Below, one piece after another: positions 7,643 through 23,479 of a stretch of DNA of 37,551 nucleotides (the stretch's first letter is position 1; every line of letters starts with the position of its first letter). The position numbers and the translations under genes were made by a program. The notes beneath the pieces are model-generated. The model did not search any database. It worked only from the letters and a program-made list of their open reading frames with translations, and was not told the DNA's origin. The stretch comes from a virus (Duplodnaviria > Caudoviricetes): IMG/VR virus record IMGVR_UViG_3300021425_000081, positions 1 through 37,551 of that record, one strand, 5' to 3'.

Positions 7643-9212
7643 GCGCCTGAAGCTCGCGGAAGAATTATGGCGACGCAGAGCGGCTCGAAGCCTCGATCAC
7701 TTTTGCCGGTACATCGACATACCAGGGGCGCCGCTGAACGACGACGAGGACTGCGACGAATTCTATCTCGACACGGTCACGCCGGCGGCACACCACACCC
7801 TGCTCAACGAAAAGCTCCAGCAAGTGGCCGATGGCGACCTCACCAGGCTAATGGTGTTTATGCCCCCAGGGAGCGCCAAGTCGACCTACGCCAGCGTCAC
7901 ATTCCCGACGTTTTACATGGGCAACCACCCAGGCGAGCCCGTGATCCTCACCAGCTACGGCTCCAGCCTGGCGGCAAAGTTTGGACGCAAGTGCCGGCAA
8001 ATCACCGCCAGCCCGAAGTACCAGGAGCTGTTCGGTTGCCACCTAAGACCCGACAACCGAGCCGTGGACGATTGGGGCCTTACAAACGGCTCAACTTTCA
8101 TGTGTGGCGGCATCATGAGCGGGATGACGGGCAACCGAGCCAAGCTCATCGTCATCGACGACCCAGTGAAGGGCCGCGAGGACGCCGACAGCCCGACGAT
8201 CAGGGAGAAAACCTGGGAGGCGTTTCTAAATGACCTCCGCACCCGACTCAAGCCCAGGGGCTCGATTGTGGTAATCCAGACCCGCTGGCACGAGGACGAC
8301 CTCAGCGGCCGCATCCTTCCCGACGATTGGGACGGCGAGAGCGGTCAGGTCAAAGCCAAAGACGGCGAAATGTGGGAGGTGCTGTGCCTTGAGGCCGAAT
8401 GCTCCAGGATGGACGACCCCCTGGGCCGGCGACCAGGCGAGTTTTTGTGGACCGATTGGTTCAACCAGGAACACTGGCAACGCGAGAAGGCCATCCAGGG
8501 AAGCCGCAACTGGGCCGCGCTTTACCAACAACGACCCAGGCCCCAGGAAGGCGCCCTGATACAGCGCCAGTGGATACGACGGTACAACGAGCTACCGGCG
8601 GAATTTTTACGGGTGGTTCAGAGCTGGGACACCGCATACAAGGATAACCAGATAAACGACCCGTCCGTTTGCACCACATGGGGCCAGACCAGGCACGGTT
8701 ACTACTTGCTCGACGTTTTCCGAGACCGCCTGACCTACCCCGACGTTAAACGTGCCGTGATCAACAACGCGCTCAAGTGGCAACCACAGGCGGTGCTGAT
8801 CGAGGACAAAGCAAGTGGGCAGTCGTTAATCCAGGAGCTAAAGCAGGGCACCCAAGTGGACGGCAACGCGATGTACCCACCCGTTATCGCAGTCGACCCG
8901 AAGGGCGTGAACAAGATCGACCGGCTAGTGGCAGTTTCGTCACTTTTCGAGGGCGGAACGGTTCACCTACCCGAGCAGGCGCCTTGGTTGTTGGACTTTG
9001 AGATGGAGTTATTCGGATTTCCGCTGACGACGCACGACGACCAGGTGGACAGCGTCAGCCAATTTTTAAAGTGGGCGCACAGCTACCGCGTGATGATTGA
9101 TTACAGCGCCCTCGGACGCACGCGATCGGCACTAGAACAGACACGAACGGAAACGGGTGACGACGCCAGGATCGACATAAACGGCGGCAGGGACCTGGGA
9201 GGATTTATCTAA
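7623..9212 (+). CDS. terL: Terminase large subunit
   Basis: Walker A MPPGSAKST, Walker B LIVIDDP, QTRWHEDDL, ALYQQRP; nuclease motifs QSWDTA and HDDQVDS. Confidence 0.95.
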   Translation: MASPYIERLKLAEELWRRRAARSLDHFCRYIDIPGAPLNDDEDCDEFYLDTVTPAAHHTLLNEKLQQVADGDLTRLMVFMPPGSAKSTYASVTFPTFYMGNHPGEPVILTSYGSSLAAKFGRKCRQITASPKYQELFGCHLRPDNRAVDDWGLTNGSTFMCGGIMSGMTGNRAKLIVIDDPVKGREDADSPTIREKTWEAFLNDLRTRLKPRGSIVVIQTRWHEDDLSGRILPDDWDGESGQVKAKDGEMWEVLCLEAECSRMDDPLGRRPGEFLWTDWFNQEHWQREKAIQGSRNWAALYQQRPRPQEGALIQRQWIRRYNELPAEFLRVVQSWDTAYKDNQINDPSVCTTWGQTRHGYYLLDVFRDRLTYPDVKRAVINNALKWQPQAVLIEDKASGQSLIQELKQGTQVDGNAMYPPVIAVDPKGVNKIDRLVAVSSLFEGGTVHLPEQAPWLLDFEMELFGFPLTTHDDQVDSVSQFLKWAHSYRVMIDYSALGRTRSALEQTRTETGDDARIDINGGRDLGGFI

Positions 9213-10705
9213 TGGCACACGAAAGACCCGAGATGACCGAACTGGCCGCGGCCGACCACGGCATCATCGCAACCAACGGCTTCACCAACATGCTGATCGA
9301 GAACCCCGATACGGTTCTACGACGCAAGGGGTGGAATTGGGAGATATACAACGAGCTACTTCGAGACGACCAGGTCAAGTCCGTATTTCAGCAACGCCGT
9401 ACCGGCCTCACAAGCGTTTCGTGGTCAGTCGAGCCCTACAGTGACGCCGCACCCGACGTGGCCGCTGCCGATTTCTTGCGAGAGCAGATGGAAAAGCTCA
9501 ACTGGGACCACATTACCGACCAAATGGCATACGGCATGTTCTACGGATTCGCCGTCGCCGAAGCGATGTGGGGTACAGAAGGCGGCAAGATCACCCTCGA
9601 AGACATCAAGGTGCGTGACCGGTCGCGGTTTCGCTTTAACAAAGATAACGAACTTTACCTAATCCACAGCCAACAGCCCCAGGGCATCAAGATGCCCGAG
9701 CATAAATTCTGGACGTACAACTGCGGCGCCAGCCACGGCGACAACCCCTACGGCCTAGGATTGGCCCACAGCCTTTATTGGCCGGTGTTCTTTAAGCGGA
9801 GCGACATCAAATACTGGCTGATCTTCCTGGAAAAATTCGGAATGCCCACCACGGCGATCAAGCTACCCGAAGGCCAGATGACAGACGCCAACCAAATCAT
9901 GAAGGCCAAGCAAGCCCTTAACGCGATCCAGGCGGACAGCGGCGTGGTCATACCCGACGGCATGGTGGTCGAGCTAATCGAAGCCCAGCGAGGCGGTACG
10001 CCCACCTACGAGGGAATGCTGGACAAGATGGACGCGGCGATCAGCAAAGTGATCCTCAGCCAGACCATGACGACCGACAACGGCGCATCGTTGGCCCAGG
10101 CAAGGGTCCACGAGAACGTCAGCACGGCCGTAATTGACAGCGACGCCGACCTGATCAACGAATCTTTCCGCGGCACGATCGGTAAATGGCTTACCGAGTG
10201 GAACTTCCCCAACGCCAACCCGCCGGTGATCAAGCGAAACACCGAGCCCGAGGAAGACCTCAACGAACGAGCGGACCGAGACGGCAAGATATACGCCCTG
10301 GGTTACACCCCAACCGAGGAATACATCGAGGAAGTCTACGGACCAGGCTGGGTTAAACGCGAAGCACAGCCCATCCCAGGACAGCTACTCAGCACCGGCC
10401 AGGGCGAGATGCCCCAGGAATTCAGCGAGGTGGCGCCGTTATTGTTCAAGCGAGCCAAGCACCGCGAGGACATGGAGTCGCTCAACCAGGCGGCGGAAAT
10501 GCTCGCCACCAAGTACAAGGACCTATACGGCAAGCGCATCGAGCAATTGCAGGCGTTCCTGGATGACAGCGGCGACCTTGAGACGTTCCAGAAGCACCTG
10601 GTCAACATGATGGAGGAAGTCGCACCCGAGCCGGCCGTCGAAGCGGTCCAAAAAGCCACGTTTTTCAGCAGGCTCATGGGGTTAGCGCGTGGGCAGTCAA
10701 GCTAA
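9212..10705 (+). CDS. Portal protein (Mu gp29/DUF935-like)
   Basis: YGFAVAE, NPYGLGL...YWPVFFK...WLIFLEKFGMP, ISKVILSQTMTT and ARVH motifs; follows terL. Confidence 0.92.
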   Translation: MAHERPEMTELAAADHGIIATNGFTNMLIENPDTVLRRKGWNWEIYNELLRDDQVKSVFQQRRTGLTSVSWSVEPYSDAAPDVAAADFLREQMEKLNWDHITDQMAYGMFYGFAVAEAMWGTEGGKITLEDIKVRDRSRFRFNKDNELYLIHSQQPQGIKMPEHKFWTYNCGASHGDNPYGLGLAHSLYWPVFFKRSDIKYWLIFLEKFGMPTTAIKLPEGQMTDANQIMKAKQALNAIQADSGVVIPDGMVVELIEAQRGGTPTYEGMLDKMDAAISKVILSQTMTTDNGASLAQARVHENVSTAVIDSDADLINESFRGTIGKWLTEWNFPNANPPVIKRNTEPEEDLNERADRDGKIYALGYTPTEEYIEEVYGPGWVKREAQPIPGQLLSTGQGEMPQEFSEVAPLLFKRAKHREDMESLNQAAEMLATKYKDLYGKRIEQLQAFLDDSGDLETFQKHLVNMMEEVAPEPAVEAVQKATFFSRLMGLARGQSS

Positions 10706-13700
10706 GATCGTCAACTACGCGGAAATCACCGCCAATTTTGAGCTAACACCAGTCCAGGCACTCGAATACTTCCTGGAAAAAGGGCTCAAACCCACGTTTT
10801 CGTGGGCCGATATGATGGGCGAAGAACACGACCAGGCGTTCACCGTAGCCAAAATGATGGATACGGATCTGCTGCAGACGGTCAAAGGCAAGCTCGACCA
10901 GGCACTCGCCGAGGGCAAGACCTTCGCGCAATTCAAAAACGAGCTGATTCCCGTACTTCAGAAGGCCGGCTGGTGGGGCAAGAAAGACGTCATCGACCCA
11001 TTGACCGGCTTGGTGGTCGAAGCCCAGCTGGGTAGCGCAAGCCGACTCGAAACGATCTTTTTGTCGAACATGCACAGCGCCTACCAGACCGGATCGTGGG
11101 AGGGCATCCAGGACAACAAAGAGCTATTCCCCTATTTAATGTACGACGCGGTCGACGACGCCAAAACCCGACCCGAACACGCGGCCAGAGACGGAGAGAT
11201 TCACGCAGTCGACAGCGATTTCTGGCGCACCCATTACCCACCGAACGGATACAACTGCCGGTGCGGCGTTATTCCGCTGACCGAAGACGACGCGATCGAC
11301 TACGGGTGGCCGACTAACAACAAGCCGATACAGACCGAACCCTGGACCAACCCCAGGACAAACAAGACGACCGACGTACCGACCGACGTCGATCCAGGCT
11401 GGGATCACAACCCAGGCCAGGCACGGATGGACAAGATCAAGAAGGTCAGCCAGGACAAAGCATCAACCCTGACCGCTGCCGAGCAGGAAGCGCTCAAAAA
11501 AGCCGAAGCCCAACAGGAGGCAATCAAGAAAGCATATGAAGAAACCATACAAGACGGGCTCAAAGACGCCCAAGACGCCATCGAAGCCGCCCAAGAAAAC
11601 TACCCGACAATCCAAGCCCAGGCGCAGATAAACACTGCCCTCGAGGCCAACACGCCGTACCTGGCAAACGAGATCAAGAAGCTCCAGGGCAAGATAGACG
11701 ATCCCATCGAACTGCTCGCCGCGGCCCAGGCCAAAGCGCTCAAGTCCGAACAGAACTCGATGGTGCAAACCTGGAAGCAGGCCAAGAAGAAAGGAAAAGA
11801 GCCCAGCCAAAAGGCCCAGGACTACGTCAAGACGTTACCCGACGAGGTCCAGATATCGCTCCAAAAAGAGATCGACGAATTTACAGGCGTCTCCGCTGCC
11901 AAGCTCGAACTCGAAAAGATCGCACTAGGCCAGGCGGCGAAGCAGAAGGGCCACAAGAAAAAGCTGTTCGACAAATACACCAAGGACGGAACCGCCGGCA
12001 ACTACGCCAACGACCCGAAAGGACTGCTCGCGCTGATTGAAAAGGAAGCCCAGGCGCTCCAGGACAAGGCAGAAAAGTCAGCGGTGTTGAGCGGCTACAA
12101 AAAGAGCATCCTGGCGGGCAAGGTGCCGAGCCCAAAACAGCAAAAGGTGTTCGGCGCGCTCGACGATCTGGAGCAGGAAAAGGTCCTCAACGACATCGAG
12201 GCGAAAAAGGGCTTCGCACCCAGCCCTGTGACGCCCCCAAAGGCCGCGTCAGACGCGAAAGTGACAAAGCAAAGCGCAGAGCCCGACCAACTGGACGGCG
12301 CCAACCTGACGCAAATAGGGCCCCAGGCAGGAAGCAACAAAGGTGGCCTGTACCAGGACACAACCACCGGCATCAAATACTACCTGAAGCAACCGGCCGA
12401 CTTTGACGTCGCCTACAACGAAATCCTCGCCAACAAGCTCTACCAGAAAGCCGGCGTCGACGTACCGGACGTCCAAATTGTCACAATCAACGGCGAGGAA
12501 TTCCTGGCCAGCCGCATCATTCCGAACCTGGAAAAGTCACGCAAGGCGCTCGAATCGGGCAAGCCCAAGGGCATCGGCGATGATTTCGTGTTTGACGCCT
12601 GGCTCGCCAACTGGGACGTGGTCGGCCTCGATTACGACAACATGCTGGTCAAGGGCGGCAAGGTTTACCGCATCGACAACGGTGGCGCACTGATCTACCG
12701 CGCCCAGGGCGGCAAGAAAACCAACTTCGGCGACGAGGTGCTGGAGCTTCAGACGCTACGGGACGCCAGCATCAACCCGCAAGCCGCCAGGGTGTTTAAA
12801 AACGTCACCGATGAACAGATTGCCGAAGGCGCTAACCGACTGGCAAAGATTACCGACAAAGAGATCCGCGACCTGGTCGACTCGTGGGGCCCAGGCACGC
12901 CGGCGGAAAAAGCAGCGCTCGCCAAAACGCTGATCGCCCGACGGGACTTTATCGTCAAGAAGTACGCCACAGCCAGCGACCCCAAGCTCGAAGCGTACAA
13001 GGCACAGCTGGCGCTGGAGCAAACCGAGGTCCTGGCTAACAGGATCAGCGACCTGGACAACCGAATCAAAGAGGCGGTGATCGGCATCGCCAAACAGCGA
13101 GACACCGGCAACCCGATAAGAGACAAAGACCGATTCCGCGTCGAAGCCGTGGTCGAAGCATATGAGGACCTACTGAGTCAGTACGGCCCAACGATGAACA
13201 GCGCACAGCACCAGGCATTCATCGCCCATTACAAGACGTGGGTAGACGACCTCAAGACCGTCGCCAACGCACAAACCGTGGGCCAGCCGGCGCGGGTGAT
13301 TTGGGCCGATCAATTCAAGGGCATGAAAGCCACCCAGGGATTCACACCCAAGATCGACCCGAAGAAACTAACCGACGTAGAGCTGCCCGACGAGAGCGTG
13401 CAGATTTACACGACAGCGCAAATCAAAAAGGAAGCCAGCGGCCTCGATTGGTCCGCAAGTTACTCATCCAACGCGCCAGCCAACCTGGCAGACCTCAGCA
13501 CGGCCGAGCTTGGCATTTTGAGAACGTACACCGGCGGCGATTACCGTCGGATGAACCGAAGCCTGCGCGAGAATTTAGGCCAGGGCCCGTTCGGAATACT
13601 GGCGAAAATGATGAACGCGGCGCTCACGAAGGCCAAAAAGTACAAAGGCGTGACCTCCAGGGGACTCAACATCCAGGGCGACGATTACAACTCGTTCATG

Positions 13701-13955
13701 GAGAAGATCAGAACGGCATTCGAGTCGGGATCAGCCTGGCGTGACTTCGGGATGATGTCGAGTAGTAAGGGCACCACGCCTGCCATGGGTGGCAACATTA
13801 TCTTGATATTGAACGGCAAGTCCGGTGTCGACATTTCCAAGATTTCACGTTACGGCGGAGAAAAGGAGGTACTCTTCCCCTCTGGCACGCAGTGGCTCGT
13901 CACGGAAATTAGCGAGCGCAATGGCAAGACCATCATCAATTTAATGGAGGAATAA
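10689..13955 (+). CDS. MuF (Mu gp30-like) minor head protein with kinase-like and ADP-ribosyltransferase domains
   Basis: MuF: AFTVAK, GWWG, RLETIF, YDAVDDAKTRPEH, PPNGYNCRC, VDPGWDHNPG. Kinase-like: GPQAGSNKGG, YYLK, NEILA, DAWLANWD...DN, RIDNGG. ART: YT...Y..MN..LR, SRG, MSSS, EKEVL. Confidence 0.88.
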   Translation: MGSQAKIVNYAEITANFELTPVQALEYFLEKGLKPTFSWADMMGEEHDQAFTVAKMMDTDLLQTVKGKLDQALAEGKTFAQFKNELIPVLQKAGWWGKKDVIDPLTGLVVEAQLGSASRLETIFLSNMHSAYQTGSWEGIQDNKELFPYLMYDAVDDAKTRPEHAARDGEIHAVDSDFWRTHYPPNGYNCRCGVIPLTEDDAIDYGWPTNNKPIQTEPWTNPRTNKTTDVPTDVDPGWDHNPGQARMDKIKKVSQDKASTLTAAEQEALKKAEAQQEAIKKAYEETIQDGLKDAQDAIEAAQENYPTIQAQAQINTALEANTPYLANEIKKLQGKIDDPIELLAAAQAKALKSEQNSMVQTWKQAKKKGKEPSQKAQDYVKTLPDEVQISLQKEIDEFTGVSAAKLELEKIALGQAAKQKGHKKKLFDKYTKDGTAGNYANDPKGLLALIEKEAQALQDKAEKSAVLSGYKKSILAGKVPSPKQQKVFGALDDLEQEKVLNDIEAKKGFAPSPVTPPKAASDAKVTKQSAEPDQLDGANLTQIGPQAGSNKGGLYQDTTTGIKYYLKQPADFDVAYNEILANKLYQKAGVDVPDVQIVTINGEEFLASRIIPNLEKSRKALESGKPKGIGDDFVFDAWLANWDVVGLDYDNMLVKGGKVYRIDNGGALIYRAQGGKKTNFGDEVLELQTLRDASINPQAARVFKNVTDEQIAEGANRLAKITDKEIRDLVDSWGPGTPAEKAALAKTLIARRDFIVKKYATASDPKLEAYKAQLALEQTEVLANRISDLDNRIKEAVIGIAKQRDTGNPIRDKDRFRVEAVVEAYEDLLSQYGPTMNSAQHQAFIAHYKTWVDDLKTVANAQTVGQPARVIWADQFKGMKATQGFTPKIDPKKLTDVELPDESVQIYTTAQIKKEASGLDWSASYSSNAPANLADLSTAELGILRTYTGGDYRRMNRSLRENLGQGPFGILAKMMNAALTKAKKYKGVTSRGLNIQGDDYNSFMEKIRTAFESGSAWRDFGMMSSSKGTTPAMGGNIILILNGKSGVDISKISRYGGEKEVLFPSGTQWLVTEISERNGKTIINLMEE

Positions 13956-14162
13956 GTGTCGAACATACTCGATTTGCCACCGGCGGTGCGCGACAAGGTC
14001 CTGGCGAAGATGGGCCTGACGCTAGAGGAAGCCAAAGAGAAAATGGCAGAGCAGGCTGAGATCAACAAAAACATCGACACCGATGGGTTTAACTCAGGCA
14101 AGCCCGACTCTCCAGGATGGTCAGACGACCAGATCGAAGGCTACGTCGACACCGACGAGTGA
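13956..14162 (+). CDS. Small acidic protein, candidate immunity protein for the MuF toxin
   Basis: GTG directly abuts the MuF TAA, with GGAGG RBS inside the last MuF codons; 68 aa with acidic C-terminus. Function inferred from position only. Confidence 0.55.
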   Translation: MSNILDLPPAVRDKVLAKMGLTLEEAKEKMAEQAEINKNIDTDGFNSGKPDSPGWSDDQIEGYVDTDE

Positions 14163-14202
14163 TATTTTCTAGGTATAGATAACCACAGCCAGCCCCCAGC
14201 AT
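14158..14202 (+). promoter_or_regulatory. Putative activator-dependent late promoter
   Basis: AGTGATATTTTCTA (degenerate box) with CAGCAT at +39. Confidence 0.35.
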
Positions 14203-14244
14203 TCTCACCATAGGCGCGAAAAGCGCCCACTGGGGGAAGCATGG

Positions 14245-15417
14245 ATGAGGGACTACGAGTACCTACGGCCTTACGCAACATCAAAATCACAAATAGAAGT
14301 CCTCGATGCTCTAGGCCAGGCAGACACGGTCAAAGAGGCCGCTGACGAGCTAGGCAGATTCGAGCGGTCAGTTTACAAAACACTGCAACGACTAAAGGCC
14401 GCGGCCGCAATCCAGGGTGTCGCGCCCGAACACGATATGCACAAGCCCGCTGCCGACCCGTTCCTGGTCCAGGGCACCAGCACACTCTACGGCGACGACG
14501 GCTCCGTCAAGATTCAATGGGTCAAGACCCAGCTGAAGAAAAACGAAGCACTGGCGATGTTGCGCGACGCGATCGTCGACTCGATGGAGGACTTTAAAGG
14601 GCGCCACAAGCCCACAGAATCCCCGTCAGCGCAAATTGCCGAGCTATTGACCGTTTACCCCATGGGCGACCCGCACATCGGGATGTACGCCTGGGCGGAG
14701 GAATGCGGCGAAGACTTCGACGTCAAGATAGCCAGGGACGACCTACTCAACGCCACCTCGCGCCTGGTCACCGTGGCGCCGGCAACGCAGAACGCCGTGA
14801 TTCTCAACCTCGGCGATTTTTTTCACGCCGATAACTACTCCGCCACCACGGCTCGATCCGGTCATAAACTCGATGTTGATTCAAGGTGGCCGCACGTTTT
14901 ACAGGTCGGCTGCATGATCATGGTGGACTTAATCACCCTCGCACTTTCCAAGCACCAGAAGGTCGACGTCATCAACTGTATAGGCAACCACGACGATCAC
15001 AGCAGTGTGATGCTTGCGGCCTTTCTGGATGCTTGGTTCCACGACGAGCCCAGGGTCCACGTCCACCCGACGGTTCAGAAATTTCACTTTTATCGATTCG
15101 GCAAGGTACTCATCGGCGCAACCCACGGCGACACGGTCAAGATGACCGACCTGGGTGAGCTGATGGCCGCGGACCAGCCCCAGGATTGGGCGGCAAGCGA
15201 ACACCGCTACTGGTACACGGGTCATATCCACCATAAGCAACGGCAAGAGCTACGGGGATGCACGGTGGAAAGTTTCAGGACCCTCGCTTCCAAGGATGCG
15301 TGGCACGCGGCTCAAGGCTATCGAAGCGGCCGAGATATGTACGCCATCGTTCACCATCGAGACTTCGGTGAGGTCGAGCGGTACCGGTGCGACATTCGCC
15401 AGGCAAGATCAAAATGA
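14245..15417 (+). CDS. Calcineurin-like metallophosphoesterase with N-terminal HTH
   Basis: GDPHIG, NLGDFFH, GNHD, HGD and GHIHH metal-binding motifs; N-terminal TVKEAADELGRFERSVYK HTH. Confidence 0.88.
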   Translation: MRDYEYLRPYATSKSQIEVLDALGQADTVKEAADELGRFERSVYKTLQRLKAAAAIQGVAPEHDMHKPAADPFLVQGTSTLYGDDGSVKIQWVKTQLKKNEALAMLRDAIVDSMEDFKGRHKPTESPSAQIAELLTVYPMGDPHIGMYAWAEECGEDFDVKIARDDLLNATSRLVTVAPATQNAVILNLGDFFHADNYSATTARSGHKLDVDSRWPHVLQVGCMIMVDLITLALSKHQKVDVINCIGNHDDHSSVMLAAFLDAWFHDEPRVHVHPTVQKFHFYRFGKVLIGATHGDTVKMTDLGELMAADQPQDWAASEHRYWYTGHIHHKQRQELRGCTVESFRTLASKDAWHAAQGYRSGRDMYAIVHHRDFGEVERYRCDIRQARSK

Positions 15418-15722
15418 GACGCCTGGTCCTACCCTCGAAGTACGGGCGCATTATGTTTTGCCCCGAGGAAATCATAAACATCGTCGAGGACACCAGGACG
15501 CCAGGCAAGTCCGTGGTGTACACCCCGCTATGGCAAGACGGCGTCGAGGTCACCCTGGCGTTTGACGACTTGATCGGGATCTACATGCACGCGACCAGGG
15601 AAGCCGAACAGGACGACGAAGAATACGAAGAAGAATACGAAGAAGACGACTACGAACTCGAGGACGATGAATCGGAGGAAACCAACGATGACGATGAAAT
15701 CTTTTGCGGCACAAATTCTTGA
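15414..15722 (+). CDS. Hypothetical protein with very acidic C-terminal tail
   Basis: ATGA overlap with the upstream stop; tail DDEEYEEEYEEDDYELEDDESEETNDDDE. Confidence 0.65.
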   Translation: MRRLVLPSKYGRIMFCPEEIINIVEDTRTPGKSVVYTPLWQDGVEVTLAFDDLIGIYMHATREAEQDDEEYEEEYEEDDYELEDDESEETNDDDEIFCGTNS

Positions 15723-16020
15723 AAAAGCCGCCAGGCACCTGGATGACCGAGCCAAGACCTACGACACCGAGGAAGGCGGAGAGCGAAGTATGGAAAAGAC
15801 CATAGCCACGTTTAACGCACTGACCGGCTCCCAACTCACGGTAGAGCAGGGCTGGCTTTTCATGGTTATCCTCAAGATGGTCCGCACCCAGCAAGGCGGG
15901 TACCGAGCGGATAACTACGAGGACGGCGCGGCGTATTTTGCCCTGGCAGGCGAGCAGGCAGAGCAAGACAGCCACCCTACCGCCCACACCTTAACCAGTA
16001 CCGCAACCGGTAAAGTTTAA
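15688..16020 (+). CDS. DUF6378-like protein (all-alpha, possible nucleotide pyrophosphohydrolase)
   Basis: DRAKTYD...ERSM...GWLFMVILKMVR...DNYEDGAAYFAL; GGAGG RBS before ATG 15688. Confidence 0.7.
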   Translation: MTMKSFAAQILEKAARHLDDRAKTYDTEEGGERSMEKTIATFNALTGSQLTVEQGWLFMVILKMVRTQQGGYRADNYEDGAAYFALAGEQAEQDSHPTAHTLTSTATGKV

Positions 16021-16071
16021 TAAAACCGGAATAAAGTGGTATAGTGTCGTCATTGCCGGTAATTCACCGGT
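16006..16071 (+). promoter_or_regulatory. Sigma70-like promoter with four CCGG-core boxes
   Basis: TTAATA (16017), 17 nt, extended TGG-TATAGT (16040-16045). Boxes at 16006, 16025, 16055 (inverted) and 16066. Confidence 0.6.
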
Positions 16072-16086
16072 TAAAAGGAGGACACT

Positions 16087-16509
16087 ATGTGGCTTTTCAC
16101 CAGTAAAGGATTTTTGTCGGTGGTCAACCACCGCGACGATAGCGAGGTGTTTATCGTCCGCGCCAGGCAGTACAACCACCTGGCCGAGTACGTCAGCACC
16201 AAGCATATATGGGAAGACCCCAACGCGGACTACCGATACCGCGCACTCATCACCTACGACGAGCTTGTCGCCTTGATGATGGCCGCGGTCAACGACCTGA
16301 CATACGACAACTTCAAGAACAGCATCCCAGCGCACGACCACCGGTACAAAGCGGCGGCGTCTCGCGTTTGGAAGCAGATGCTTCCGCTGCAGAACATCAA
16401 CCTGGATTGTAGCCCCGAGATGGACGACCAGATCGACTGGGACCATTACGGGCGCGAAGACGGTCTGGGCGGCGGCTACGACAACGGCTATTGGAGCCGA
16501 GGCGCGTAG
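16087..16509 (+). CDS. Conserved hypothetical protein (stand-alone, moron-like)
   Basis: Strong AGGAGG RBS; MWLFTSKGFLSVV...VRAR...ADYRYRA...YDNFK; has its own promoter and a downstream terminator. Confidence 0.8.
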   Translation: MWLFTSKGFLSVVNHRDDSEVFIVRARQYNHLAEYVSTKHIWEDPNADYRYRALITYDELVALMMAAVNDLTYDNFKNSIPAHDHRYKAAASRVWKQMLPLQNINLDCSPEMDDQIDWDHYGREDGLGGGYDNGYWSRGA

Positions 16510-16589
16510 GGAAGTTTTGCAGGGATTCTCGACGCCCAGGTCGAGGTACAAAGTAGGGGCTCACCAAGGGCACTCCTATTCATGATATT

Positions 16590-16617
16590 GGCCGGCTCCC
16601 ATACCGGCCTTTTTTTT
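16590..16617 (+). terminator. Rho-independent terminator
   Basis: GGCCGG-ctcccata-CCGGCC followed by T8. Confidence 0.85.
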
Positions 16618-16619
16618 GC

Positions 16620-16664
16620 GCGGATATTTTACGAGTACAGCGGAACCGCCACCGATCTCAGACT
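16620..16664 (+). promoter_or_regulatory. Putative activator-dependent late promoter (fibre cassette)
   Basis: GCGGATATTTTACG right after the terminator, with CAGACT at +39. Confidence 0.5.
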
Positions 16665-16693
16665 ACTCGGACACGTAAGCCCGAGAGAACCCC

Positions 16694-17287
16694 ATGGCGG
16701 AAACCGAACTGGCGATCCAGCAGGGTAAGACGTTTGTAAGAACGCTCCGGTGGGAAAGCGCACCAATTGAATACGAGGAAATCACAGGCATCGACAAGAC
16801 GGCGCCCGTGAGCATCACTGTGCCTGGTCACGCGATACCCGACGGGTGGCGAGTCGCCATTGTCTCGGTGCGCGGCATGACAGAAATCAACGCAAGCACG
16901 CCACCCAAAACAAAGGAATACCTAAAGGCCACAGTCGTAAGCCCTGATCGCATTGAGATCAACACGCTGAACGCGTCAGGATTTAGCGCATACCAGGGCG
17001 GCGGATTTGTTCAATACAACACGCCGGTGCCCCTGGATGGCTACACCGCCAGGATGACGATCAAGGATCGGATGCGAGGGACTGAGCTAACCACCCTCAC
17101 CACGGAAAACGGTCGAATTACCCTCGATCCCGTCAACTACGTCATACAGCTAAAGATCGAAGCCACAGAAACCGCAACATTTGACTGGACGACCGGTGTT
17201 TACGACCTAGAAATGGTCAGCCCCGACGGCACAGTTAGCCAGCTAATTTACGGCACAGTGACCGTCTCACCAGAGGTCACCACATGA
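16694..17287 (+). CDS. Virion structural adaptor protein (first gene of the fibre cassette)
   Basis: IQQGKTF...GYTARMTIK...VYDLEMV...LIYG.V.V.PEVT beta-sandwich pattern with an inserted ITGI...H...G..V...V.GMTEIN beta domain. Confidence 0.6.
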   Translation: MAETELAIQQGKTFVRTLRWESAPIEYEEITGIDKTAPVSITVPGHAIPDGWRVAIVSVRGMTEINASTPPKTKEYLKATVVSPDRIEINTLNASGFSAYQGGGFVQYNTPVPLDGYTARMTIKDRMRGTELTTLTTENGRITLDPVNYVIQLKIEATETATFDWTTGVYDLEMVSPDGTVSQLIYGTVTVSPEVTT

Positions 17288-17886
17288 CCAATGGCGTGGA
17301 TACCGTATCACTCAAGGAAATCACCACAACCGTCGTCGAAGAAAAAACCAGCGACGCCGTAATCGGTGAGAGTCCTGCGTACACGGTCGCCACGCCAGCG
17401 GAAGCAGAAACAGCAGTAATCGAAACACAACAGTCATCGGTTTACGCCGAGGTCACAGAACAAGCGGTAACCACACTCGGCCAGATCGGCCCACAAGGGC
17501 AACCAGGCGAAACAGGACCGCCAGGTCCAGAGGGCCAGCCAGGCCCGCAGGGAGCGCCAGGAACCGGACTAAGCCCATCGGTGCGGGTATTCGTGCCAAT
17601 TGGCGCCACGGCGATTGTGGAAGCCCTAAACGCGTCCGTGATCCGTTCGTGCAAATGGATCATCACGACAACAGCCACCAACCGCCAGCACTTCAGGATG
17701 AGTGAAATCCTCGCACTTAACGACGGCCAAGCATCACACCACATCGAGTACGGAATTCTTGGCGCAGACGTTCAGTACACGGCAGACGTTGCCATGGAGG
17801 ACGACTCTTTTTTTTTACGCATCACAAACAACGACACCGAACAGCTAATGGTTGACGCCGTTCGAGTCGGAAACCTAGCCACCTAA
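17284..17886 (+). CDS. Fibre protein with collagen-like segment
   Basis: GQIGPQGQPGETGPPGPEGQPGPQGAPGTG Gly-X-Y run; C-terminal domain paralogous to that of the next gene. Confidence 0.75.
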   Translation: MTNGVDTVSLKEITTTVVEEKTSDAVIGESPAYTVATPAEAETAVIETQQSSVYAEVTEQAVTTLGQIGPQGQPGETGPPGPEGQPGPQGAPGTGLSPSVRVFVPIGATAIVEALNASVIRSCKWIITTTATNRQHFRMSEILALNDGQASHHIEYGILGADVQYTADVAMEDDSFFLRITNNDTEQLMVDAVRVGNLAT

Positions 17887-17898
17887 AGGAGAAACACC

Positions 17899-19173
17899 AT
17901 GGCTCTATCATTTTTTAACGTCGAGCGCGGCTTTTTACACAACAATGCCGCCATCATCGCCGGCGCAGGCGCACCTTCGGGGACAGGCGACAGCGCAGAA
18001 GTCCTCATCGGTTCGATTTACCAGGACACCGCCACCGGTGATATGTACATCAAGAAGGTGGCCGGTGCAGGCGCCGACAACTGGGAAAAGCTCGCAGTAA
18101 CAGGCGACATCACCAACCAGCTATCGTTCCGTGAGCCCGCGCACGTTGCCGGCATGGAGACTACGCTGCCAACAGGCACAGCCGGTCAGACCATCGACAT
18201 CGATGGCGTCACTATCGAAGACGGGCACCGCGTCCTGTTTAAGATGCTCGACACCAACCCCAACGTATACACCTACGACCAGGCAAGCGGCACGTTCGTC
18301 GAAGACAACAACGCCGCCACAGCAGGCGATATGGTTTACATCGTCGGCGGTTCGTCAGGCGGTCAGACTTTTAGCTACAACGGCACCGACTGGGTACTCT
18401 CAAACCAGAGCAACCTCGAGGAGCAAAACTTCATCCGCACCTTCATCGGTAAAGGCGCAGAGGGAAGCGAACTCCCACAATACTCATCGACCACATTCGT
18501 CACAAACGGCGACAACCTGGAAACTGCTATCGGCAAATTAGACGCCCAGGCAGACCAGAACGCCGACGACATCGTCAGCGAAGCAACGATCCGAGCCAAC
18601 ACTGACTCAGACTTGCAAGACGAGATCGATGACACTCAGACCGGCGCAGGCTTAAACGCCGACGGCACGTACAGCGCAAACAGCGGCTCCAACTACCTGA
18701 CAACGGCGACCAGCCTCAAGTCAGCGGACAACCTGCTCGACGCGCAGTTAAAGTCGACCACGGACAACCTCGAATCACTCGAGACAACCGTTAACGCGGC
18801 GACAGCCAAGCTAGATCGCGCACGTACAGAAAGCGACGAGCAAGCCGTCACATTAGCAACGACTGTCGACAGCATCGCTGTGGACACCGTAGCGGCGTGC
18901 AAGTGGACAATCCACGTCCAGGGCAACCAGGCGGGCGAGCAAAACAAAAAGCAAGTCGTCGAGATCCTGGCGACTCACGACGGCACAAGCTCATCCGACG
19001 CAACCGACACCGACTACACCGTTTATTCAAAGCTCCGCATGGGCGGCAACCTCCAGGGCTTGAACTTTTCAGTAGACGTTAGCGGCTCAGGCGCGGCACA
19101 GGTTATGCGCCTGCGTGTTTCATCAACGGCATCGGTAGACGTTCGCGCTACGCGTGAGGTGATCAACTTCTAA
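17899..19173 (+). CDS. Fibre protein (beta domains, coiled coil, C-terminal connector-like domain)
   Basis: AGGAG RBS; G/T/S/D-rich; IDGVTIEDGHRVL; LETAIGKLD and LKSADNLLD coiled-coil repeats. Confidence 0.7.
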   Translation: MALSFFNVERGFLHNNAAIIAGAGAPSGTGDSAEVLIGSIYQDTATGDMYIKKVAGAGADNWEKLAVTGDITNQLSFREPAHVAGMETTLPTGTAGQTIDIDGVTIEDGHRVLFKMLDTNPNVYTYDQASGTFVEDNNAATAGDMVYIVGGSSGGQTFSYNGTDWVLSNQSNLEEQNFIRTFIGKGAEGSELPQYSSTTFVTNGDNLETAIGKLDAQADQNADDIVSEATIRANTDSDLQDEIDDTQTGAGLNADGTYSANSGSNYLTTATSLKSADNLLDAQLKSTTDNLESLETTVNAATAKLDRARTESDEQAVTLATTVDSIAVDTVAACKWTIHVQGNQAGEQNKKQVVEILATHDGTSSSDATDTDYTVYSKLRMGGNLQGLNFSVDVSGSGAAQVMRLRVSSTASVDVRATREVINF

Positions 19174-19478
19174 TGAGCTTAGAGCGGGCATTCGAGACTG
19201 ACGAGCTTTTAATCCAGGAAAAGGCCAGCATCCTAACGGGTGCTGCCGACCCCAGGACAGTCCCCTACGCCCGCCCAATCGGTTCAATTTACCTCCGCAC
19301 AGACGGAACGCTATGGCAAAAAACCGGTCTCCTGGCTAACGAATGGTCCCAAGTGCAAGGCGGTGAGGGACCAGGACCAGGGACCGGTGACTCTTTCGGC
19401 AACGCTGACGGAGGATTTGCAGATTCTATCTACGGCGGGATCACACCAGTAGACGGAGGGAATGCCAGTGGCAGTTAA
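19173..19478 (+). CDS. Short fibre segment protein
   Basis: PIGSIYLRTDGTLWQKTG...W resembles LIGSIYQDTATGDMYIKK...W of the previous gene; ends with two DGG motifs. Confidence 0.65.
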   Translation: MSLERAFETDELLIQEKASILTGAADPRTVPYARPIGSIYLRTDGTLWQKTGLLANEWSQVQGGEGPGPGTGDSFGNADGGFADSIYGGITPVDGGNASGS

Positions 19479-19755
19479 CATTCAACTCCGACGTGACTCG
19501 GCCACGCAATGGGCAACCGTTAACCCTGTCATTGCAGAAGGGGAACTCGGCTACGAGTTAGACACGGGCAAGATTAAGGTCGGGAACGGCATCGATGCCT
19601 GGAATGACCTCCCGTATCGGATGACAAAAGAACACGGGGACTTGTCTGGGCGAGCAGATCCAGACCAGCACCCAATCAACGCAATTACCAACCTGCAAAG
19701 CTCACTAGATGAAAAGCTGGACCCGTTCAGCACGATCGACGCGGGCGCATTTTAA
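19462..19755 (+). CDS. Short fibre segment with Mtd N-terminal/hyaluronidase-N-like domain
   Basis: IQLRRDSATQWATVNPVIAEGELGYELDTGKIKVGNG...WNDLPY; HPINAITNL repeat; ends IDAGAF. Confidence 0.75.
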   Translation: MPVAVNIQLRRDSATQWATVNPVIAEGELGYELDTGKIKVGNGIDAWNDLPYRMTKEHGDLSGRADPDQHPINAITNLQSSLDEKLDPFSTIDAGAF

Positions 19756-19767
19756 AGAGGCTAAGTC

Positions 19768-20604
19768 ATGACACAAACCATCAAGATCAAGCGCAGTACA
19801 GTCACATCGGTACCTAGCTCGCTTCAAAACGGCGAACTCGCGTACTCGGAGAACAGCAAAAAGCTATTCATCGGACGACCAGGCGGCACGACCGGCGACG
19901 TTGATGCGATCGGCGGCAAGTTTTATACCAACCTGGTCGACAGCAACAGCGACAACTGGACCACCGCATACAACAACCAGGTCGTCTCGGTTGGTTTCGA
20001 TAGCGATGGCGTTTTAACGCTGGGTCAGCAGGACGGCGGGACACTTACCGTCGACCTTGACGGCCGCTACCTTCAGAGCTACGCCGAGACAGACACGCTA
20101 GACAGCGTTACAGACCGCGGCGCAAGCACCACTAACTCCCTCACAGTGGGCGGATTGACCATCTCAGGCGACCTCGTAGTCTCGGGCACCACGACGAGCG
20201 TGAACACCGAGGAAGTCAACATCGCCGACAACTTCCTCCTGCTCAACAGCAACTTTTCAGGATCGGCCTCGGAAAACGCCGGCATCGAGATTAACCGCGG
20301 CTCCGACGCCAACGTCTCTATCCGATACAACGAAACCGACGACGCCTGGGAGCTAACCAACGACGGCTCGAACTTCAACGCCATTGCAACGGGCGCGTCA
20401 GTCCGAACCGACCAGGAAATCATCGACCTATCCACTGGCGGCTCGCAGACCAATATCAGCGTGACAGACGGCGGCACAGGCGTGGACTTTTCGGTAGCAA
20501 CAGCGACAGCAAGCGTCCTAGGTGTTGCGAGCTTCGCATCGCCAGACTTTAGCGTCTCAGCCGGCGCCGTTTCGCTCAACCAGGTAGACGGCGGCACGTT
20601 CTAA
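19768..20604 (+). CDS. Fibre segment protein
   Basis: N-terminal IKIKRS...PSSLQNGELAYS; TLDSVTDRG; GDLVVSGTTTSVN...IADN...AGIEINRG; ends VDGGTF. Confidence 0.75.
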   Translation: MTQTIKIKRSTVTSVPSSLQNGELAYSENSKKLFIGRPGGTTGDVDAIGGKFYTNLVDSNSDNWTTAYNNQVVSVGFDSDGVLTLGQQDGGTLTVDLDGRYLQSYAETDTLDSVTDRGASTTNSLTVGGLTISGDLVVSGTTTSVNTEEVNIADNFLLLNSNFSGSASENAGIEINRGSDANVSIRYNETDDAWELTNDGSNFNAIATGASVRTDQEIIDLSTGGSQTNISVTDGGTGVDFSVATATASVLGVASFASPDFSVSAGAVSLNQVDGGTF

Positions 20605-20641
20605 TCAAAGCCCAGGCTAAATAGCCAGGAAGGGAGGCCAT

Positions 20642-21253
20642 ATGGCAAGCACCATCCAGATAAAGCGATCGGCCGTCGCAGGGAAAACTCCAACAACGAG
20701 TGACCTTGTGGCGGGCGAATTCGCCATCAATACCTTCGACGGCAAGGTTTACATCAAGAAGATCCAGGGGGGCACGGAAAGCATCGTCGAAGTCGGTGCC
20801 GGTGGAAGCGGTCCCGCCACAACGCCTCTCTGCAAAGTGCGGGGCAGAGTAAACGACCTTCTTAATAACTCAACCGATTTTACGGTGCGGGCGGTTTTCA
20901 ACGCCACGCCGCTCATCAACGTGGGCGGATTTAGCGTTAGCACAACCGCAATCGAGGTACCCAGTACAGGTAAGTACCTTTGCGCTGCCGACATCTTTCT
21001 CGACAACGATAAAGAAAGGGCAAACGTCGGTATGTCCTGGGCCGTCAACAGCACAAGGCAAATCGGCACAGCCGCGACAGCCTACGTCAGAGATAGAGAT
21101 GGACACAACGAGTCATCGCTTCACTTGACCGAGGTGCTTGATTTAGTGGCCGGCGACGAAGTCCAGCTGATGTTTGCCAGGATTGCTAGGTCGGGCAACG
21201 ACGACCTCGTCACCAGAACAGAAAGCTCAGTCAGCATCATAAAACTACCGTAG
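20642..21253 (+). CDS. Distal fibre segment with probable C1q/TNF-like tip
   Basis: N-terminal IQIKRSAVAGKTP..SDLVAGEFAINTFDG; C-terminal F....IEVPSTGKY...VLDLVAGDEVQL. Confidence 0.72.
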   Translation: MASTIQIKRSAVAGKTPTTSDLVAGEFAINTFDGKVYIKKIQGGTESIVEVGAGGSGPATTPLCKVRGRVNDLLNNSTDFTVRAVFNATPLINVGGFSVSTTAIEVPSTGKYLCAADIFLDNDKERANVGMSWAVNSTRQIGTAATAYVRDRDGHNESSLHLTEVLDLVAGDEVQLMFARIARSGNDDLVTRTESSVSIIKLP

Positions 21254-21262
21254 AGGGCAACC

Positions 21263-21883
21263 ATGGCATACGTGAAGCTAACGGATGGAATACCGTCCTA
21301 TTACTCGCTCGGATTATTGCGCCGAGAACACCAGGAGCTACAGCAGGTCGAGTCGTTAACCGAGGGCGAACTAGCCGCATACAACGTCTACCCCGCAATC
21401 GAGGACCCAGAGCCCGACTACGACCACAAAATGCAAACAGCAGAACAGCAGTACGACTACATCGACGATGCCTGGCGGATAACCTGGTCGGTCCAGGACA
21501 AGCCCATGGCAGAACGCCAGGCCATCGTAAACGAAAGAATCAAGCGTGATCGCAAGGCGAAAGAAGAAATCGGAATCTCCTGGACTGACGTGAAGGGCGA
21601 CACATTCTTTTTTGACACCAGCCAAGATTCCCAACAGCGACACGCAGGCGCCGTCGCCTCAATCAACGCCAAGATGAGAACAGACGGGATATGGAAATGC
21701 TCCAACGTCCACGGCAATACCGTGTTTCGGCAGACGACCAATAACGAGCTACTCAACATTAGCCAGCTGGTCCACGACCATATCCAGCTGTGCTTTGAAG
21801 CCGAGGCCGCTGCCAGCGCAAAGGTCGCCGGCGAGGACCTAACCGCAAACTTCGAAGACGAGTACAACAACCTGACCGGTTGA
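21263..21883 (+). CDS. Fibre assembly/accessory protein (DUF4376-like)
   Basis: PDYDHKMQ...WSVQD, then R...E..GI...FDT...SQ...WK...HIQLCFEAE; last gene of the fibre cassette. Confidence 0.65.
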   Translation: MAYVKLTDGIPSYYSLGLLRREHQELQQVESLTEGELAAYNVYPAIEDPEPDYDHKMQTAEQQYDYIDDAWRITWSVQDKPMAERQAIVNERIKRDRKAKEEIGISWTDVKGDTFFFDTSQDSQQRHAGAVASINAKMRTDGIWKCSNVHGNTVFRQTTNNELLNISQLVHDHIQLCFEAEAAASAKVAGEDLTANFEDEYNNLTG

Positions 21884-22037
21884 AAGTCCAGGACTACCTG
21901 TTTTTCTAAAGCCAAAAACCGGCTTTCAGTAGATATTCGTACATATTACCGGTATATACAAGGAACGTACCGGAAAAACATCAATCACTGACCGGTACGC
22001 TTTAGGAGGATACAAGCATGAGAACCATAAAACCGGT
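21875..22037 (+). promoter_or_regulatory. AT-rich control region with six ACCGG boxes
   Basis: ACCGGN at 21875, 21918, 21948, 21969, 21991 and 22032; AGGAGG RBS before 22018. Promoter hexamers not clearly resolved. Confidence 0.55.
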
Positions 22038-22287
22038 CATGCGAGTCAAGAAGCTCAACTACGACCGAAAAATAAAATGGCTGTTTAACAGCGAAGAAAC
22101 CGAACTCCAGGCGCAGGTCACAAACCACTTCGGGTCATTCATTGGCAACGAGTGGACGGCCGAGGATTGCCAGCGATTCGAGGACTCACTCAAAGAGGAC
22201 CTCACGGTGCGCGAATACCTGGAAACCAGCTGGTCCCCTTACGGGCCAACAACACCAACCCAACTCGACCTAGGAGGTGTGGCATGA
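22018..22287 (+). CDS. Hypothetical protein
   Basis: AGGAGG RBS; stop overlaps the next ATG. Confidence 0.7.
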   Translation: MRTIKPVMRVKKLNYDRKIKWLFNSEETELQAQVTNHFGSFIGNEWTAEDCQRFEDSLKEDLTVREYLETSWSPYGPTTPTQLDLGGVA

Positions 22288-22604
22288 CACAGCGCGATCG
22301 ATTGCGTGAATTTTTTGACCAGGGGAACACCCTCAACAGGCTCGACGCTTGGCGGCAATTGGGAATTCTCGAAGCACCGGCCCGCATTAGCGAGCTTCGG
22401 AGCGAGGGCTACCCGATCGAAACCAAGATGGTCACGGTGATGAACCGCTACGGCGAGAAGGTCCGAGTCGCCCGATGGGCCAAGACCGGCACCCCGTCAC
22501 CTTGCCCCAGGTGCCACGGCAACCGGATCGAGCCAGGCTTTGTCGGCATGGCGCCGGACTGCTCCGAGTGCAACGGCCAGGGGGTGATCGATGAATCTGA
22601 TTGA
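22284..22604 (+). CDS. Winged-HTH protein with C-terminal zinc finger
   Basis: Start at 22284 (AGGAGG, ATGA overlap): MTQRDRL...LGILEAPARISELRSEGYPIET; CPRCHG...CSECNGQG. Confidence 0.75.
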   Translation: MTQRDRLREFFDQGNTLNRLDAWRQLGILEAPARISELRSEGYPIETKMVTVMNRYGEKVRVARWAKTGTPSPCPRCHGNRIEPGFVGMAPDCSECNGQGVIDESD

Positions 22605-22905
22605 GCAAGCCCTAGGCAAATCCATGTACCAAACGGCGCCATCAAGCGACCTGTCCGTCAACGCCCGCGCATTGCTCAAGCAAATCAGCGGCACAACGGA
22701 ATCTGCGATCGAAGACAGTCGAAAGGCCATCGCCGCCTGGAAGCAGGGGAGACCGCTAAAGGCTCGCGACTTCAGCCCAAAACCATGGGACGCCGGATGG
22801 ACCGACGTGACTGACGAACCTATGGCCGACGTCATCGCCCTCGTCGAGTGCGGGCAGATTTTCTGCACCAAAGTCGACAAGCGATGGTTTGCGAGATCCC
22901 TATGA
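22591..22905 (+). CDS. Hypothetical protein
   Basis: Overlaps both neighbours in the operon; no family recognised. Confidence 0.55.
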   Translation: MNLIEQALGKSMYQTAPSSDLSVNARALLKQISGTTESAIEDSRKAIAAWKQGRPLKARDFSPKPWDAGWTDVTDEPMADVIALVECGQIFCTKVDKRWFARSL

Positions 22906-23072
22906 TCGAGGCCATTCACAGCGAGCTGTTCGAACTTCGCCAGGAGTTACGAAAGCTCGAAGAAACCAACGAAAGAACCCAGCGCATGATGACGGTGGTC
23001 AACAACAGCATCGAGACCCTGGACAAAGTGCGCCGATACGAGATGGCAAAAGCCACTAGGAGTGCAAAATGA
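22902..23072 (+). CDS. Small coiled-coil protein
   Basis: ATGA overlaps at both ends; MIEAIHSELFELRQELRKLEETNER. Confidence 0.6.
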   Translation: MIEAIHSELFELRQELRKLEETNERTQRMMTVVNNSIETLDKVRRYEMAKATRSAK

Positions 23073-23479
23073 GTTTTACACAACAACATACCCACATCAT
23101 CGGCAACCTTGGGAGCGACCCCGAGATCCGATCCACACAGGACGGTACCTGCATCGCCAACCTCAGCGTTGCGGTCAGCGAAAAGTACAAGGACCGCAAC
23201 GGCCAGCCAGTCGAGGAAACGACCTGGTTCCGCGTCGCGATGTTCGGCCGGCTGGCTGAGGTCGCCAGGGACTACGCCGAGAAAGGCGAAAAGGTCTACG
23301 TCGCAGGCAAGATCAAGACCCGTTCCTACCTCAAGGCCGGCGTCGAAACCTGGACCTGGGACCTCAAGGCAACGCAATTCGGATTGTTAGGCGAACGCAA
23401 GGACGCTCAGACGGGCGCTGTAACGCCCACAGGCAACACGCAATTTGAATCAGTCCCAGACGACGACATCCCATTCTAA
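23069..23479 (+). CDS. ssb: Single-stranded DNA-binding protein
   Basis: IIGNLGSDPEIR, TTWFRV..FG.LAE, KG..VYVAGKI.TR and C-terminal DDDIPF. Confidence 0.95.
   Translation: MSFTQQHTHIIGNLGSDPEIRSTQDGTCIANLSVAVSEKYKDRNGQPVEETTWFRVAMFGRLAEVARDYAEKGEKVYVAGKIKTRSYLKAGVETWTWDLKATQFGLLGERKDAQTGAVTPTGNTQFESVPDDDIPF

Follow-up and report, generated by a model that had tools for sequence, protein, structure and literature searches.

A phage head protein with an atypical kinase and an ADP-ribosyltransferase, and the possible tie of its kinase family to ADP-ribose chemistry

A phage head protein that carries two enzymes in tandem raises the question of what the two have in common and, above all, of what the first of them acts on. 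Such a protein is encoded in a 37.6-kb virus record (IMG/VR record IMGVR_UViG_3300021425_000081), ~87% complete by estimate, the whole 37,551 nucleotides (nt) of which are referred to here as the window. Its gene, at 10689–13955 on the + strand (as are all window features below unless stated), is a single uninterrupted open reading frame (ORF) of 1088 amino acids (aa) that joins a MuF head-association domain, an atypical kinase domain and a C-terminal ADP-ribosyltransferase (ART), a layout common to a class of 31 relatives. What looked like a single odd fusion belongs to a large unnamed kinase family whose neighbours point to one pathway, and we consider it possible, at a probability of roughly 45%, that the protein is an injected pair of writers whose kinase would phosphorylate ADP-ribose or nicotinamide adenine dinucleotide (NAD).

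The kinase domain within the head protein

The kinase domain occupies aa 531–765 (12279–12983) and was recognised from an AlphaFold model, from fold searches and from conservation. Its motifs are GPQAGSNKGG (12318–12347), YYLK (12378–12389; K567), NEILA (12417–12431; E578), DAWLANWD (12594–12617; D643), DYDN (12630–12641; N651) and IDNGG (12672–12686; D663), all found where an earlier reading made without database searches (the sequence-only reading) had placed them. Neither the single sequence nor a 73-row profile of the domain gave a significant match in Pfam, NCBIfam or the PDB. The best Pfam scores were for HipA_C (13.2 bits, cut-off 30.5) and HipA_2 (9.8 vs 27 bits), both below the curated cut-offs, and on this ground HipA proper was rejected. 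The sole PHROG match was phrog_3162, a family of unknown function (E 0.0014).

The AlphaFold model (predicted local distance difference test score, pLDDT, 96) has a kinase fold with a helical C-lobe over residues 1–234, the five C-lobe helices being placed at pLDDT >90. Its best match is CtkA (Foldseek E 1.6e-6; Z 13.9, root-mean-square deviation (rmsd) 3.4, 205 residues aligned), with CotH (Z 13.8), PI4KIIalpha (Z 13.6), MavQ (Z 12.2) and HipA (Z 10.8) following, Fam20 matching too and LepB recovered by Foldseek. The domain also has the residues of the CtkA/PI4KII/Fam20/HipA clan (Lys, Glu, catalytic Asp and the metal-binding Asn and Asp, with roles set by motif position), and the HipA/PI3-PI4-kinase-type assignment made from the sequence was confirmed at the level of the clan by Foldseek and by structural comparison of the predicted model. 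The full helical C-lobe in this model led to rejection of the kinase clade found in polyvalent proteins. Among its closest structural matches are kinases that act on hydroxyls of sugars or inositol (PI4KII, MavQ, Fam20). A lipid or sugar head-group kinase of the PI4KII/MavQ sort, easing DNA entry, would agree with the Z scores of PI4KIIalpha and MavQ and with the LepB match, but it would leave the tie of the family to ARTs, Nudix proteins and ADP-ribosylhydrolases of the ARG type (see below) unexplained, and to our knowledge most proteobacteria have no phosphoinositides; we regard it as very improbable.

K567, E578, D643 and D663 were present in 73/73 diverse domains and N651 in 72/73, and the five residues are kept in 140–144 of the 148 domains of the closest proteins. 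A pseudokinase was rejected on the invariance of these residues, by which the kinase is intact-looking. Basic residues near the DFG-equivalent are similarly conserved (K677 and R751 in 73/73 and R671 in 70/73 of the diverse domains), and their place beside the active site would fit one fixed phosphate-rich substrate, ADP-ribose or NAD.

The MuF core lies upstream at aa 63–194 (10875–11270), with matches to Pfam PF04233 (Phage_Mu_F; E 1.9e-20), to NCBIfam TIGR01641 over its cut-off and to PHROG 220 over aa 9–425. It is followed by a Lys/Ala/Gln-rich linker (aa 251–530; 11439–12278) that gave nothing significant in Pfam, has 24–49% identity in distant relatives and is probably helical, judged by composition. 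A second linker (aa 766–915; 12984–13433), common to MuF-kinase relatives of both main ART classes, leads to the Alt/VIP2-type R-S-ExE ART (13488–13928), identified by Pfam (PF03496, aa 934–1080, E 2.7e-11), by PDB sequence matches (ExoT, Tre1) and by conservation. Both glutamates of its E1058-K-E1060 motif are kept in 31/31 relatives and R991 in 27/31, while S1024–1026 forms an STS-type motif. The architecture proposed by the sequence-only reading was upheld, both the MuF and ART domains passing Pfam cut-offs and the motifs lying where expected. ExE ARTs modify arginine, and arginine is, by analogy, the likely target residue.

Partners of the kinase in phages

Searches with the kinase recovered 825 similarly long proteins and 4,900 clusters formed at 50% identity, of which 1,156 match with E 1e-30 or lower, and by these sequence matches it defines a large unnamed family. 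The region 3' of the kinase in the best 120 of the 825 proteins fell into three classes of 63, 31 and 18 members, with eight singletons. The class of 31 comprises Alt/VIP2 ARTs of the window type, and that of 18 DraT-like ARTs (four of five scanned match Pfam DRAT or share ExE). The class of 63 has an unnamed domain, the model of which (pLDDT 93.5) matches DarT (Foldseek E 7e-4; DarT1 Z 10.3, rmsd 3.7, 156 residues aligned). This domain, seen at L087:7531–8349 and in 62 related proteins, is followed in each by a ~123-aa acidic gene, and the two are candidates for a new ART family and a new immunity family on the strength of the model. When profiles built from the classes were scored on the 150 best kinase representatives, which are the closest relatives and no random sample of the 4,900, an ART was present in 133/150 and in one more by Pfam DRAT. 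The two-enzyme form, which the sequence-only reading had thought rare, is therefore the normal state of the family, and the reading as a rare fusion was rejected. The pairing seems near-obligate, its partner being constant in kind and variable in sequence, with ARTs of unrelated classes. MuF relatives that have no kinase exchange many other payloads, while those that bear the kinase retain an ART. There are ART-free kinases as well, fused to a Nudix domain (L116, L042 and P0194). Giant relatives (P0003, P0004, P0008, P0123 and others) have at least two kinase domains, some with a second ART, Nudix, intein or pyrophosphatase module.

Directly after the ART is a 68-aa acidic gene (13956–14162) that starts at the first base after the stop, with a GGAGGA site within the last ART codons, and from this placement it is translationally coupled to the ART ORF. 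The isoelectric point of its product is 4.2 vs 9.3 for the ART. Homologs lie 3' of the ART in L001 and L006, whose ARTs are closest to that of the window, and in L023, whose ART is more distant; a scan for further homologs matched only contigs already found. Among 145 kinase ORFs with DNA beyond them a next gene was found in 130, and the next-gene families sort by ART class, the 123-aa family following DarT-fold ARTs in 44/44 cases and the 165-aa family R-S-E ARTs in 32/32, with smaller families and 22 singletons elsewhere. Such tracking of the ART class is the pattern of cognate inhibitors, and the 68-aa protein is a candidate ART inhibitor, so the coupled immunity gene that had been suggested from the sequence is plausible. 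By layout, the window protein is a MuF polymorphic toxin: its MuF domain is N-terminal and follows the portal in the packaging module, the C-terminal toxin is variable (an Alt/VIP2 ART here, a DarT-fold ART in other MuF-kinase relatives), and the downstream ORF is of <150 aa (68 aa here) and co-varies with the toxin.

A second small gene, overlooked by the sequence-only reading, tracks the kinase instead. It encodes 140 aa (16087–16509) and belongs to an unnamed family of 964 proteins with invariant W2, S11, R25, R27, D48, Y49, R52, K77 and W95 in 44 rows. No family was matched in Pfam, PHROG, NCBIfam or the PDB, and its Atlas neighbours are unnamed save for one Nudix-fused cluster (TM-score 0.72). 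The family proved too variable for a locus scan. It was found in 79/166 kinase loci, and in 71/119 of those with at least 2.5 kb beyond the ORF, on either strand and 0.02–3.6 kb downstream. As a control, the 80 nearest MuF loci were taken; 44 were kept because the sequence ran on for at least 2.5 kb beyond the MuF gene, and 36 were dropped. The family occurred in 15/15 kinase-bearing and 1/29 kinase-free loci, in a scan that had two seeds, one of them the kinase pattern. The MuF tree shows nine changes in kinase presence, three of them forced by supported branches. Among 50,697 GenBank phage records, 20 have the kinase and nine the 140-aa family, all nine within the 20, and eight of the nine are similar ~90-kb phages. 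The family is absent from most actinobacterial and Dehalococcoidia kinase loci. In L116 and L042, where the kinase ends a Nudix-kinase protein, the 140-aa gene stands directly 3', which argues that it is linked to the kinase rather than to the ART. One member (L205:3925–4338, - strand) lies beside a short kinase-free MuF gene nested among kinase-bearing lineages, and may be an orphan left by payload loss.

In the window the 140-aa gene has its own ribosome-binding site (RBS) and is followed by a hairpin with a T run resembling an intrinsic terminator (16590–16619; 6 GC pairs), although the six such sites in the window vs 3.9 expected are compatible with chance. One promoter-like site precedes the gene, but with 1.5 expected by chance it was not taken as evidence. 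A complex prediction for the kinase and the 140-aa protein scored 0.00, i.e. gave no answer, and was used neither for nor against binding. The gene is a candidate inhibitor of the kinase, or an eraser or reader of its product. An independent contig from a second study (run X4, record 23) covers 11542–16734 unbroken, with 341 differing letters over ~5.2 kb, and carries the kinase, the ART and both small genes together. Because this contig bridges the region from the kinase to the 140-aa gene, an assembly chimera was rejected. The four-part module (MuF carrier, kinase, swappable ART with its cognate small gene, and kinase-tracking gene) is real, widespread and apparently undescribed.

The module has relatives in cultured phages. 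The ~90-kb phages fHe-Yen8-01, Mecenats66, Jeremy and ECML-606-1 (L081–L084) have a common cassette of a kinase-ART gene, a ~160-aa gene, a third gene that is Nudix where annotated or scanned, and a 140-aa-family gene; in three of these phages the cassette is close to the terminase. In Gordonia phage Forza (L085; 5671–11203) the kinase and the ART are separate neighbouring genes after the portal, each then followed by a small acidic-looking gene.

The kinase outside phages and its possible substrate

The kinase also occurs outside phages, again beside enzymes of ADP-ribose, a tie that the sequence-only reading, right about the fold clan, had missed. Two proteins (L139 and L144) with 39–40% identity to the window kinase (tblastn among candidates, E 4e-41 and 1e-39; profile E 7e-72) and with common motifs cluster with proteins named HopAG1, in which the kinase occupies the middle. 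Work on HopBF1 reportedly noted a kinase-like domain in HopAG1. HopAG1 is described as having an N-terminal ART and a C-terminal Nudix domain (Hulin et al., PMC9963460), and the word kinase is unused in the available text of two HopAG1 papers that describe the ART and/or the Nudix domain (PMC9963460, PMC4981494). A Vibrio locus (L124) has an ART-kinase protein beside a CesT chaperone and an Endozoicomonas locus (L100) a Scabin-like ART-kinase protein, both in the reverse order of the phage proteins.

Of 121 genomes surveyed in the Rhodopseudomonas family, the profile found a match in 16, which in nine of them lay in the kinase part. A layout was assigned in eight of the nine. Four have a standalone kinase upstream of a gene of phosphatase-ARG type, this neighbour being tested with Pfam for L123, where it is directly downstream, and assigned at the other loci by clustering or a shared start. 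One has a kinase-phosphatase fusion, and three a Cys-phosphatase-kinase fusion that converges on draG; in two of these three, Pfam also confirmed draT. The catalytic residues of the kinase are intact in the phosphatase-kinase fusions. Such fusions at draT-draG (L268:5376–8704, L269:6742–9155 and L270:5356–8780) are alphaproteobacterial, one lying within a nif/fix region. Host ARG systems are reported to carry a phosphatase in >55% of cases (PMC9503650, section 3.8).

The constant neighbour across these settings is ADP-ribose chemistry and no one target (ARTs of probably different targets, Nudix, ARG, DraT/DraG, in bacterial and plant cytoplasm), which makes ADP-ribose or NAD the simplest shared substrate. 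A mark so phosphorylated would plausibly escape ARG, and the phosphatase-ARG fusions could then be explained as a two-step eraser. In the mechanism that we propose, the MuF-kinase-ART protein would be packaged near the portal and would enter the host together with the DNA. There its ART would attach ADP-ribose to arginines of host proteins; its kinase would add phosphate to that ADP-ribose, or to the NAD from which it derives, and the resulting mark is predicted to resist host ADP-ribose erasers. The 68-aa protein would block the ART during head building, and the 140-aa protein would inhibit the kinase or reverse its action, replacing the phosphatase of the bacterial pairs.

MuF proteins sit at the portal of the head in low copy number, and the ART Alt of phage T4 is packaged and injected (PMC5576092, PMC5512222). 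In fHe-Yen8-01 the kinase-ART protein and the product of the next gene are annotated 'particle associated', that of its 140-aa-family gene not; a literature search found no paper on this phage. With the MuF domain and the T4 Alt precedent, this relative makes delivery with the DNA likely, and the virion packaging claimed by the earlier reading is retained as a probability.

A broader proposal is more tentative: the family may write a second-layer phospho-ADP-ribose on ART marks or NAD, phages injecting it fused to ARTs of any class so that their marks withstand erasure and HopAG1 using the same chemistry in plants, with bacteria answering by phosphatase-ARG fusions and reusing the kinase-phosphatase pair to tune the DraT/DraG control of nitrogenase, and with the 140-aa protein as a new reader, eraser or inhibitor. 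If the kinase does act on ADP-ribose or NAD, this would be an undescribed modification, and phage-host conflict would gain a new chemical layer. The phosphatase so often carried by host ADP-ribosylhydrolases would be explained, the HopAG1 middle domain would have a function, and DraT/DraG might be subject to a further control step.

Several points count against this reading of the kinase. Its substrate is argued from gene neighbourhood and fusions only. The top fold match, CtkA, is a protein kinase, as are CotH, Fam20C and HipA, and phosphoproteins are the usual substrates of the Cys-phosphatase family. By profiles, 17/150 representatives have no ART (one has a Pfam DRAT match, one a Nudix and one a WGR domain, and several are seemingly cut short), and some proteins have at least two kinase copies per ART. 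The DarT-fold assignment comes from a single predicted model with a middling Z of 10.3. The 140-aa gene is lacking in 48/119 kinase loci with room downstream, in all 11 Gordonia phage records and in 5/5 bacterial genomes with standalone or effector kinases (in a search with a positive control), and its co-occurrence with the kinase amounts to three independent pairs on well-supported branches, for which a sign test is not significant and cannot reach significance. The kinase-ART protein of fHe-Yen8-01 is without MuF, its virion link being a GenBank annotation. Finally, polyvalent phage proteins often combine unrelated enzymes (PMC5512222).

The main rival, a real possibility that we nonetheless do not favour, is a Ser/Thr protein kinase acting on host proteins at entry in the manner of T7 gp0.7, maybe on ADP-ribose erasers or NAD-based defences, with the ART as a separate payload and the pairing reflecting a common goal and not a substrate. 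The best fold matches, CtkA and CotH, favour it, as does the phosphatase-kinase pair by draG, which could control DraG or DraT by protein phosphorylation. The T7 kinase (T7K) disarms Retron-Eco9 and DarTG1 via phosphorylation (PMC13645617). However, such a kinase would have no need for an ART, Nudix or ARG neighbour across phage, plant-directed effector and nitrogenase contexts. The invariance of the substrate-side loop across all these hosts also counts against it, and the contrast between MuF relatives without the kinase, which vary their payloads, and those with it, which keep an ART, does likewise. The family-wide tie to writers and erasers of ADP-ribose is evidence against a plain protein substrate and against reading the two enzymes as independent payloads. 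Under this rival too there would be a widespread, probably virion-delivered class of phage kinases, and it has cultured members in phages of E. coli (ECML-606-1) and Pseudomonas putida (Jeremy, Dolphis).

The reversed order in L124 and L100 bears on a further alternative, an internal switch in which the kinase would activate the ART by phosphorylating either the ART itself or the small inhibitor bound to it, and would do so only after injection into ATP-rich cytoplasm. The fixed order of kinase then ART in phage proteins would suit it, and the downstream partner of the fHe-Yen8-01 ART, being annotated as virion-associated, may be delivered bound. The ARTs and their small partners are, however, unrelated between classes, and with the reversed order and the existence of ART-free Nudix-kinase and phosphatase-kinase fusions the switch appears improbable.

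Setting of the locus and comparison with known systems

The MuF-kinase-ART ORF starts 17 nt short of the end of a Mu-type portal gene directly upstream (9212–10705; Pfam Portal_Mu, E 6.4e-104), which places it in a packaging context. The window also holds a CI-like repressor, lambda-type replication genes, terminase, protease, capsid and tail genes. A 9-kb block between the MuF gene and the head protease (14245–23479), an unusual interruption of the head module, contains a metallophosphoesterase, DUF6378, the 140-aa gene, several tail-fibre-like genes, a helix-turn-helix (HTH) gene and a single-stranded DNA-binding protein (SSB) gene; an ORF among the tail-fibre genes (16694–17287) has a weak Pfam match to E1 FCCH (E 8.9e-7, slightly below cut-off). 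Metagenome runs holding the window come from seawater, marine and estuary samples, two of them containing at least half of its words (one of the two may be its source), and no RNA datasets are listed among the holders.

The CI-like repressor (919–1578, - strand) lies next to the lambda-type replication genes, and on these grounds the phage may be temperate. The window, which is 87% complete, yielded no integrase. This bears on the role of the module, a question separate from the chemistry of the kinase. In the model for MuF toxins of Jamet et al., the protein would be an inter-bacterial poison from a temperate phage, killing or stalling non-lysogens, and the two small genes would be lysogen immunity, with no part in host takeover. 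The repressor and the small cognate downstream genes fit this role, as does the 140-aa gene with its own RBS and terminator-like hairpin, often on the opposite strand and persisting at the kinase-free L205. Weighing on the other side are the presence of the same module in cultured ~90-kb phages, the want of an integrase and the proposal of Jamet et al. that ART-type MuF toxins are mild modulators (PMC5576092), and we think the poison role unlikely.

No description of a MuF-kinase-ART protein, or of a link between the kinase and ADP-ribose enzymes, was found in the literature, although supplements of Iyer 2017 and 2022 that we have not seen may list the architecture; the available text of PMC3482391, PMC2745422, PMC5599653 and PMC11833690 likewise mentions neither. 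The window kinase is like CtkA, CotH, PI4KII, Fam20 and HipA in fold and catalytic residues, and differs from them in its 14–17% identity, its ~235 aa and its catalytic loop, NWD-VVGLDY-DN, where the canonical kinase catalytic loop is D-x-H-x-x-N. T7K is an early gene product, unlike the MuF-fused virion protein, and its family was not matched in the Pfam or PHROG scans, no direct pairwise comparison having been made. T7 gp0.7 is similar in being a phage kinase with early action and a proposed counter-defence role (PMC13645617).

The window protein shares with the MuF polymorphic toxins (Jamet et al. 2017, PMC5576092) an N-terminal MuF domain after the portal, a C-terminal ART (14% of their 191 toxins) and a small downstream ORF. 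Unlike them, it has another enzyme, a constant one, inserted between its MuF and ART domains, along with a distinct partner gene; the main text of PMC5576092 does not contain the word kinase. Polyvalent proteins (Iyer et al. 2017, PMC5512222) are likewise multi-enzyme and virion-linked, with ART, kinase and Nudix modules, but their kinase has no C-terminal subdomain at all and their ART belongs to the H-Y-D type, whereas the window kinase has a full helical C-lobe of CtkA/PI4KII type in its predicted model and the ART is R-S-E. T4 Alt and the MuF-fused Alt/VIP2 ARTs (Iyer et al. 2022, PMC9503650) are head-packaged R-S-E ARTs predicted to act on host proteins at entry, and differ in that the available text describes no fused kinase.

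Host systems of ARG and rhodanese-phosphatase, and DraT-DraG, are alike in that the same phosphatase-ARG fusion lies directly downstream of standalone kinases of the family and phosphatase-kinase fusions adjoin draT-draG. Section 3.8 of PMC9503650 differs in that it assigns the phosphatase to the processing of ADP-ribose after release, and no partner kinase is named there. HopAG1, a type III effector of Pseudomonas syringae, has a homologous kinase with the same catalytic motifs and an adjoining ART, and differs from the window protein in its type III secretion into plants and in its order of ART, kinase and Nudix.

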